This document shows, one piece after another, positions 16,695 through 16,953 of a stretch of DNA of 64,000 nt (position 1 is its first letter; each line of letters opens with the position of its first letter). Location of the stretch: assembly GCA_963422735.1 (NCBI GenBank), contig OY730476.1, positions 1,792,001-1,856,000 of the forward strand, given 5' to 3'. The position numbers were made by a program, and so were the translations under genes. A model generated the notes under the pieces. It had not been told where the DNA came from. It saw only the letters and a program-made list of their open reading frames with translations, and did not search any database. Source of the stretch: Candidatus Latescibacterota bacterium (lineage in GTDB: Bacteria > Latescibacterota > UBA2968 > UBA8231).

Positions 16695-16953
16695 TGTACT
16701 CTCAGAAGCTATGTCGCCGAGGCGACAATGCTCCTGACCAGGTAGTCGATCACCTGGAGTTGATCAAGTGATCAACCTCCTTGCGGTACAATTACTACTC
16801 AATGGACCACCTCCTTTCGCTTGTGCGCGCCTCATATCCATACTCCAACTCTGCGCGTCGTTGCGGCCAATTACAAAGCCGGGCTGGCTCGCTCGCGTAG
16901 CCTCGAGCCTCAGCGTGGCGGCAACAGAGGCTTTAGGCCCCTGAACCCGTCTT
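16654..16953 (-). ncRNA. Putative stand-alone structured RNA / micro-ORF transcript carrying extended Shine-Dalgarno motifs
   Basis: Bounded by a promoter and a terminator, no long ORF, several perfect hairpins, AAAGGAGGTGGTCCA at 16817-16803 and AAGGAGGT at 16782-16775. Confidence 0.65.

Follow-up and report, generated by a model that had tools for sequence, protein, structure and literature searches.

Small mRNAs that carry an unusually long complement of the 3' end of 16S rRNA have been described under the name rre (Hahn et al. 2016, PMC5711450). In the main account of that work, the small mRNA rreB of Bradyrhizobium measures 165 nt and carries a perfect 17-nt complement of the 16S rRNA 3' end, a GTG start codon and a reading frame of 14 codons. 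It co-sediments with 30S subunits, its translation is weak because of the long Shine-Dalgarno (SD) sequence and the GTG start, and replacement of the start codon stabilises the RNA (PMC5711450). The analogs listed there, with complementarity of 16 nt or more, all belong to four orders of Alphaproteobacteria; the RreB and RreR peptides were described by the authors as conserved within their clades, and the synthetic peptides were found to be unstructured (PMC5711450). The literature searched contained no follow-up on bacterial rreB or rreR and no report of such RNAs outside Alphaproteobacteria.

Two RNAs listed as sRNAs in Rfam were included in the comparison. The first, CC2171 (RF01867), is a Caulobacter sRNA whose expression has been confirmed by Northern blot in Methylorubrum, according to the passages available. 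We would link it to the rre genes of Caulobacterales, although neither CC2171 nor Rfam is named in the available text of the rre paper (PMC5711450). The second, Ms_IGR-5 (RF02471; Actinobacteria, IGR-5 of M. smegmatis), has been called a 'validated but yet uncharacterized' sRNA, and it is not described as coding in the literature consulted. Here, these systems are set beside a small RNA gene in a 64,000-nt stretch of DNA (the window) from an uncultured candidate phylum.

The small RNA is encoded on the minus strand of the window between metG (end at 17025) and a Zn-dehydrogenase gene (start at 16586), both neighbours being assigned by Pfam. The features discussed below are collected in Table 1. 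Within positions 16300-17300, the predicted promoter was the sole promoter-like site (10 of 12 matches), and its TTGAC and -10 box were kept throughout the genus alignment, as was the T-run of the terminator. A simple terminator scan (loop limit 3-8 nt) reported no terminator, probably because the loop is longer than the limit of the scan; the sequence itself clearly contains both the hairpin and the T-run. The stretch folded much better than its shuffles (MFE z-score of -5.0), and promoter, terminator and covariation all indicated the minus strand. The opposite, plus strand (16625-16955) held three mechanical ORFs of 44-58 codons. At gathering thresholds, Rfam gave no match at this locus; its sole match in the window was a tmRNA gene (RF00023, 202.5 bits; 39251-39609, plus strand) about 22 kb from the small RNA. 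A linkage to smpB was ruled out for this genome, in which smpB lies about 1 Mb from the small RNA.

Among the relatives, blastn matched the RNA in 22 of the 24 other genomes of the same genus (82-96% identity) and within the genus only, and a wider reach needed covariance models. With such a model the RNA was detected in 68 of 75 genomes of family f1, usually as one main match per genome. In a sample of the phylum, the core model found 57/63 genomes of family f1, 18/30 of f2, 2/2 of f3 and 2/19 of f4, and 0/36 across ten other families. The matches of an exact-pattern scan included uncultured genomes labelled Latescibacterota or Gemmatimonadota. By ORF inspection, the neighbours of the RNA varied between the genera of family f1, and in some genomes the next gene was apparently on the opposite strand. 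The neighbour sets of other genera include metG and an oxidoreductase gene, recognised by ORF inspection and not by Pfam, as well as genes on the other strand that we take from their N-terminal sequences, on the same footing, to be hemA- and hemY-like. With its own predicted promoter and terminator, a single main match per genome and variable neighbours, the small RNA is a stand-alone gene.

In metatranscriptome contigs from four runs in four studies, the word depths over 16694-16953 and over the flanking genes were, run by run, 174 and 7-11, up to ~5e5 and 9-49, 4594 and 2, and up to ~1.1e4 and 0; these depths sum over related organisms, and the contigs give no strand, ends or true expression level. 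Among the RNA contigs listed, none joined the RNA block to metG, and the terminator was bridged by one low-depth contig only (17 vs thousands). Stretches without RNA-contig cover (16939-17000 in most runs; the flanks in run X8) are evidence in neither direction. In one run (X7), position 16927 was joined back to 16819 through two additional letters (depth 22), which may be an artefact of assembly or library. We read the coverage as no more than an indication that the RNA is discrete and highly represented.

The 16S rRNA of this genome ends ...CTGGATCACCTCCTTTCTAAGG, and a segment of the small RNA, GAAAGGAGGTGGTCCA (SD1), is complementary to that end. When aligned with the 16S end (...GGCTGGATCACCTCCTTTCTAAGG; ...CTGGATCACCTCCTTTC), the 16 nt form 15 Watson-Crick pairs and one G.U pair. 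The 13-mer core of SD1, AAAGGAGGTGRTC, has two occurrences in the 4.95-Mb genome, namely at this locus and in the antisense of the 16S 3' end, and SD1 was invariant in the alignment (A3). This extended SD is beyond chance. Its 3' half can pair with ACCGC inside the reading frame; the pairing was kept in 88% with one-sided changes only, so the hairpin is rated as possible.

Immediately 3' of the 16S complement, and 7 nt past its GGAGG core, stands the TTG codon (16802) of a 12-codon mini-ORF that was intact in 29/29 genomes of the genus. Its conservation was examined in 101 distinct 130-nt cores from pooled loci, including 104 stretches from the exact-pattern scan, which required neither a start nor a stop codon. 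A frame of 9-15 codons with a TTG, GTG or ATG start and a TGA, TAG or TAA stop was present in 100 of these 101 homologous cores, which are related sequences and not independent events, and in 437 of 5050 dinucleotide shuffles (8.7%). The starts were TTG in 51, ATG in 36 and GTG in 13 cores; the stops were TGA in 63, TAG in 30 and TAA in 7. All homologs share, in this order, GAAAGGAGGTGGTC, a start codon, a frame of 9-13 codons, a second GGAGG and a stop in the upper part of a helix, with the start codon 6-7 nt past GGAGG (11 nt in one genus). Start codons interchanged solely with other start codons while the adjacent spacer base was variable, stop codons interchanged solely with stop codons, and length differences among the cores were always multiples of three. 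These are signals that only a reading frame would explain, and the TTG-started frame is beyond chance and appears to be the sole real one among the tiny frames of this RNA. In this respect the first-pass annotation, which had proposed ribosome-binding signals and a translatable micro-ORF and had flagged the internal TTG at 16802, was borne out.

The second GGAGG (SD2) lies inside the mini-ORF, and 98 of 100 cores have it 8-12 nt from the stop codon. Different genera keep it at the nucleotide level in two reading frames, ACA GGG AGG and GTA GGA GGT, while the encoded peptide was poorly conserved apart from Ser-Ser, mostly, at positions 2-3. The weak conservation of the peptide and the differing frames of GGAGG thus favour the act of translation, or the docking of the ribosome, over functional peptides as the selected property. 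Since much of the mini-ORF is constrained as RNA as well, structure could account for some of the conservation of its codons.

Helix P_ii, whose 5' arm consists of the last codons and the TG of the stop, was paired in 95.9% of the cells across 41 sequences and showed compensatory changes at 4 pairs (35 cells), a level reached in 0 of 500 shuffles. In 4 sequences a change from TGA to TAA or TAG broke pair 67-91, and the stop was nonetheless retained. Comparative data thereby give good support to P_ii as a covarying helix that would contain the stop codon. The alternative hairpin of segments seg2 and seg3 was 93% paired, but 453 of 500 shuffles scored as high and covariation was absent, and it is regarded as possible; by inspection, seg3 can pair with SD1 too. 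In the variable hairpin, pair 232-262 was AU in 13, GU in 7, CG in 2 and GC in 1 of the sequences. The inner part of this hairpin is missing in one locus of the same genus (L048, 1501-1791, minus strand), where the RNA measures 291 nt against 307 nt, and the apex is therefore considered dispensable. The helices of the 5' domain, which is absent or different in other genera, showed one-sided and compensatory changes (pair 54-71: UA 10, UG 7, CG 6).

Table 1. Features of the small RNA locus and positions in the window
Feature	Position	Strand	Description
Predicted sigma-70-type promoter	16960..16989	-	TTGACA, 18 nt, CATATT with TG extension; predicted from sequence
Small RNA gene (~300 nt)	16653..16959	-	Match of covariance model R1 over 16653-16959
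Structured 5' domain, genus-specific	16819..16959	-	RNAalifold, 23 genus sequences
GGAG ahead of ORF1	16846-16843	-	Sequence
ORF1	ATG 16835 to TGA 16766-16764	-	Reads MRRAQAKGGGPLSSNCTARRLIT
Extended SD (SD1)	16803..16818	-	16-nt complement of the 3' end of the own 16S rRNA
Mini-ORF	16764..16802	-	MSSNCTARRLIT; TTG start, 12 codons, TGA stop
Second SD-like GGAGG (SD2)	16776..16780	-	Internal to the mini-ORF, 9 nt before the stop codon
Helix P_ii	16746..16775	-	16775-16765 (last codons and TG of stop) pairs with CAGGTGATCGA (16756-16746)
ORF2	TTG 16767 to TGA 16750	-	Reads MINSR
Alternative hairpin (possible)	16738..16757	-	CCAGGTG (seg2, 16757-16750) with anti-SD-like (A)CCTGG (seg3, 16745-16738)
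ORF3	GTG 16753 to TAG 16709	-	14 codons
Variable hairpin	16702..16737	-	Passed through by ORF3; compensatory changes
Predicted intrinsic terminator	16654..16693	-	G+C-rich 12-pair stem, then seven T

The closest likeness was to rreB and rreR of Bradyrhizobiaceae and Rhodobacterales as described in the main text of the rre report. Shared with them are a small stand-alone transcript, a unique 16-17-nt complement of the 16S rRNA 3' end with the SD inside it, a weak start codon other than ATG where this complement ends, a tiny ORF conserved within clades, and a predicted hairpin that takes in the 3' part of the SD. The complementarity of at least 16 nt to the own 16S rRNA, the hallmark of the rre RNAs, is present in the window RNA with one G.U pair; the small ORF at the end of the complement is conserved in its clade (29/29 and 100/101, as above), and sequence signals together with the block of RNA contigs point to a short, independent transcript that has a promoter and a terminator of its own. 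By contrast, the rre frames have 14 or 18 codons and begin with GTG, whereas the window RNA has 12 codons and begins with TTG; the complement of rreB is perfect, whereas that of the window RNA has the G.U pair and its start codon stands just outside the complement. Relative to that description, the window RNA adds SD2, the covarying helix that would hold the stop, and a 140-nt 5' domain. By this comparison, the window RNA has the sequence-level hallmarks of the rre small mRNAs.

CC2171 was the only, and weak, Rfam match of the window RNA (25.3 bits, E 0.0024 in a 651-nt search; gathering threshold 75). The likeness consists of a 5' end of the form ACAA-CGAAAGGAGGUG-UCCA-UG and, in topology, of a helix that joins the region after the start codon to the region before the terminator. 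Ms_IGR-5 gave no match to the window RNA at E up to 10 in 16500-17150 (gathering threshold 45 bits). In a sample of 151 Actinomycetota genomes, 19 matched this family above the cut-off and 43 at E up to 0.001, tallies that include four unpublished genomes whose sequences were not used. Like the window RNA, the consensus and the 28 members inspected contain an extended SD (in Ms_IGR-5, GGAAGGAGGTGGTCC). Fifteen of the 28 loci were parsed by script into a TTG, ATG or GTG start, a frame of 12-13 codons and a TAG, TGA or TAA stop, and the same 15 have an internal GAGGTG that ends 10 nt before the stop. Of the 13 loci that the script left unparsed, about 10, judged by eye, carry an in-frame CTG or ATA where the start codon would stand. 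In the Ms_IGR-5 members (L231-L260, Actinomycetota, without L248 and L258), the mini-ORF ends in a conserved ..EV(A/T)xx motif. The Ms_IGR-5 model also gave matches below the cut-off in the control genomes of Caulobacter vibrioides and Thermus thermophilus, a hint of further RNAs with an extended SD.

The pattern scan also matched genomes labelled Chloroflexia/Limnocylindrales, Armatimonadota and Acidimicrobiia, one contig labelled Burkholderiales, and one Trueperaceae contig without a clear frame. The loci of other phyla have the same order of a promoter, an extended SD, a start codon, 10-15 codons with GGAGG or GAGG near the stop, and hairpins. With core model R2, homology across phyla was not established: the matches reached 15-27 bits only. 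A second lineage of Latescibacterota (f2 type) encodes the mini-peptide MSEMTSGGGCS and variants and scored 30.5 bits with the Ms_IGR-5 model (cut-off 45). In this lineage (L110, 3234-5408, plus strand, and 14 similar loci), the RNA lies between ABC-permease genes and rplM-rpsI-rpsB, and in 15 of 16 loci rplM follows it at a distance of about 380-545 nt; inspection of the L110 sequence revealed a terminator-like hairpin with a T-run and then a promoter-like TTGACA ahead of rplM. A Limnocylindria type (L120, 5201-6318, plus strand, and 16 similar loci) has an extended-SD mini-ORF for the peptide MDSHISSCTASEVRR and variants, followed on the same strand by smpB. An smpB-like ORF was present in 16 of 17 loci of this type, the Pfam SmpB scores were 198.7 bits (L120) and 193.5 bits (L122), and in L120 a tmRNA (128 bits) follows smpB at 5943-6318.

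At the level of sequence, the comparison of homologs establishes an RNA gene with an extended SD, a conserved frame, a second SD and a stop-holding helix. The reading that we favour, with a probability of roughly 60%, is that this region yields an abundant, stand-alone small RNA, which serves as an rre-type mini-mRNA for the docking of ribosomes. SD1, which is 5'-proximal, would pair along the entire single-stranded 3' tail of 16S rRNA and set the weak TTG start 7 nt behind the GGAGG core. The ribosome would then translate the 12-codon frame, the amino-acid sequence of which would be of little importance, and would have to open the conserved helix in order to reach the stop. With the stop codon in the A site, the second GGAGG would lie 6-7 nt upstream of the P-site codon. 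Since this spacing equals that between SD1 and the start codon, we infer that the anti-SD could re-pair at termination; pausing, tethering and remodelling of the SD-like and anti-SD-like helices are all possible. By analogy with rreB of Bradyrhizobium, tight binding of 30S subunits, weak translation and a ribosome-dependent turnover of the RNA would be expected. The effective product would be the encounter of the RNA with the ribosome, by which free or terminating ribosomes may be sensed or buffered, and not the peptide; that ribosome docking rather than a peptide function is the selected property is held with moderate confidence. Among the points against docking, the 3' half of SD1 may be sequestered by ACCGC or by the 5' domain, and an over-long SD combined with a TTG start predicts poor translation.

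Another reading is that the mini-ORF encodes a functional micropeptide as the effector and that the RNA is merely its mRNA, an option that the first-pass annotation had left beside its main proposal. The frame is conserved, residues 2-3 are mostly Ser-Ser and the peptides are alike within clades, in agreement with the clade-wise conservation reported for RreB and RreR (PMC5711450). Between genera, however, most positions change and the peptide varies from 9 to 13 residues; GGAGG, read in different frames, yields G-R, R-R or G-G; and the C-terminal half is dictated by helix P_ii. Within the genus, about 3 synonymous changes were counted by eye against 6 non-synonymous ones, and the unstructured state of the synthetic RreB and RreR peptides (PMC5711450) also speaks against a peptide effector. 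Such a function is considered unlikely.

It is less likely still that the RNA is a purely non-coding structured sRNA, that is, a base-pairing regulator or a protein sponge in which the SD-like, start and stop triplets are incidental to structure. The strong structure signal and the high nucleotide conservation agree with that description; the anti-SD-like segments could pair with targets, and both look-alikes, CC2171 and Ms_IGR-5, stand in Rfam as sRNAs. It does not account, however, for starts and stops that interchange only among themselves, for length changes in threes, or for a stop kept despite the loss of its base pair, and the 16-nt complement of the 16S tail is unique in the genome (by its 13-mer core, besides the 16S antisense).

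In leader peptides and regulatory uORFs, such as those of erm-type and trp-type attenuators, translation of a short frame, rather than its product, remodels downstream RNA helices. A cis-acting leader of this kind, in which translation of the mini-ORF would switch helices and control read-through of the terminator into the downstream gene, has an attenuator-like layout of three segments (seg1:seg2 or seg2:seg3) in its favour, together with the one low-depth contig that bridges the terminator and the positions upstream of smpB (16/17 loci) or rplM-rpsI-rpsB (15/16) in other clades. The window RNA differs from such leaders in that it has neither a conserved downstream gene nor an anti-terminator and ends in its own efficient terminator. 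For family f1 the reading was rejected because the neighbours vary, at times with the downstream gene apparently on the opposite strand by ORF inspection. No segment competing with the terminator stem was seen, the seg2:seg3 pairing lacked covariation, and the hairpin, T-run and promoter-like TTGACA of the f2-type locus count against this reading. A leader-peptide attenuator was likewise discarded as a class for this RNA, its downstream genes differing between genera. We regard a cis-acting leader as very unlikely.

The first-pass annotation had described a chain of three coupled micro-ORFs whose serial translation, by termination-reinitiation at a TTGA and a GTGA overlap, would hold ribosomes on the RNA, and had judged the overlaps and the embedded SDs to look designed. 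The coordinates and translations of ORF1, the internal TTG, ORF2 and ORF3 were exact on the minus strand, where a further in-frame ATG for ORF1 lies at 16841; both overlaps exist, and the second GGAGG stands at a workable spacing of 8 nt ahead of the TTG of ORF2. Two-link NTGA chains, however, start at 120 of the 1673 ORF-ending stops of the 64-kb window (7.2%), and at least one such chain occurred in 474 of 2000 dinucleotide shuffles of the 307-nt RNA (24%). Because two successive NTGA overlaps are common by chance, the overlaps are no evidence of design, in contrast to the extended SD. In the genus, the ATG frame of ORF1 reached the common stop in 25/29 genomes and was broken in 4/29 (two early stops, two frameshifts), and its ATG and GGAG lie inside or beside predicted helices of the 5' domain. 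The TTG of ORF2 was kept in 28/29 genomes, as expected from the position of ORF2 as the loop and 3' arm of the P_ii hairpin, in which its 18 nt were invariant. The GTG of ORF3 was found in 29/29 genomes, but its length of 14 codons in only 22/29, the seven others having 12, 15, 20, 38, 64, 64 and 377 codons; in L020-L023 the frame is shifted because of a 2-nt insertion in the variable hairpin, visible in the alignment. Outside the genus, the overlap reads CTGA in most genera, and the downstream frames are unrelated and differ in length and sequence. Conservation of the overlaps and downstream frames, by which the chain was to be judged, accordingly failed in the homologs. Helices also account for the conservation of the nucleotides of ORF2 and ORF3. 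With a genus-specific 5' domain, CTGA outside the genus and unrelated downstream frames, we propose that the chain is a by-product of RNA structure, ORF1, ORF2 and ORF3 probably arising from the 5' domain and two hairpins. The chain of serially translated micro-ORFs thus appears largely refuted by comparison and has next to no probability left.

Returning to the docking mini-mRNA, a wider proposal is tentative and would, in our estimate, rather fail than hold: that the RNAs described here belong together with rreB/rreR, CC2171 and Ms_IGR-5 in a single, widespread class of ribosome-docking mini-mRNAs with two SDs. In such RNAs, SD1 would capture the 16S tail and SD2 would recapture it at a stop inside a helix, so that the RNA reports or buffers free, terminating or stalled ribosomes. 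If so, Latescibacterota (at least two lineages), Limnocylindria-type Chloroflexota, Armatimonadota and Acidimicrobiia would be new cases, and the placement at translation genes, namely smpB-tmRNA (Limnocylindria type), rplM-rpsI-rpsB (f2 type) and metG (here), would reflect the role of the RNA.

In summary, small mRNAs with a full-length complement of the 16S tail have so far been described, in the accounts available, only from Alphaproteobacteria, and the window RNA is identified here as a probable rre-like mini-mRNA that extends the kind to a new phylum and shows additional features. The design is now seen in a candidate phylum of uncultured bacteria, where it ranks with the most deeply covered parts of the metatranscriptome contigs from several studies, and is shared by the two Rfam sRNAs CC2171 and Ms_IGR-5. 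For annotation, a caution follows, as start/stop overlaps within structured RNAs easily arise by chance; the real frame was singled out by the interchange of start and stop codons and by length changes in threes. The comparison adds two features, a second SD whose distance to the stop is fixed and a covarying helix that would hold the stop, and both are open to experiment in culturable organisms that carry the design, among them Mycobacterium smegmatis, Caulobacter and Bradyrhizobium.
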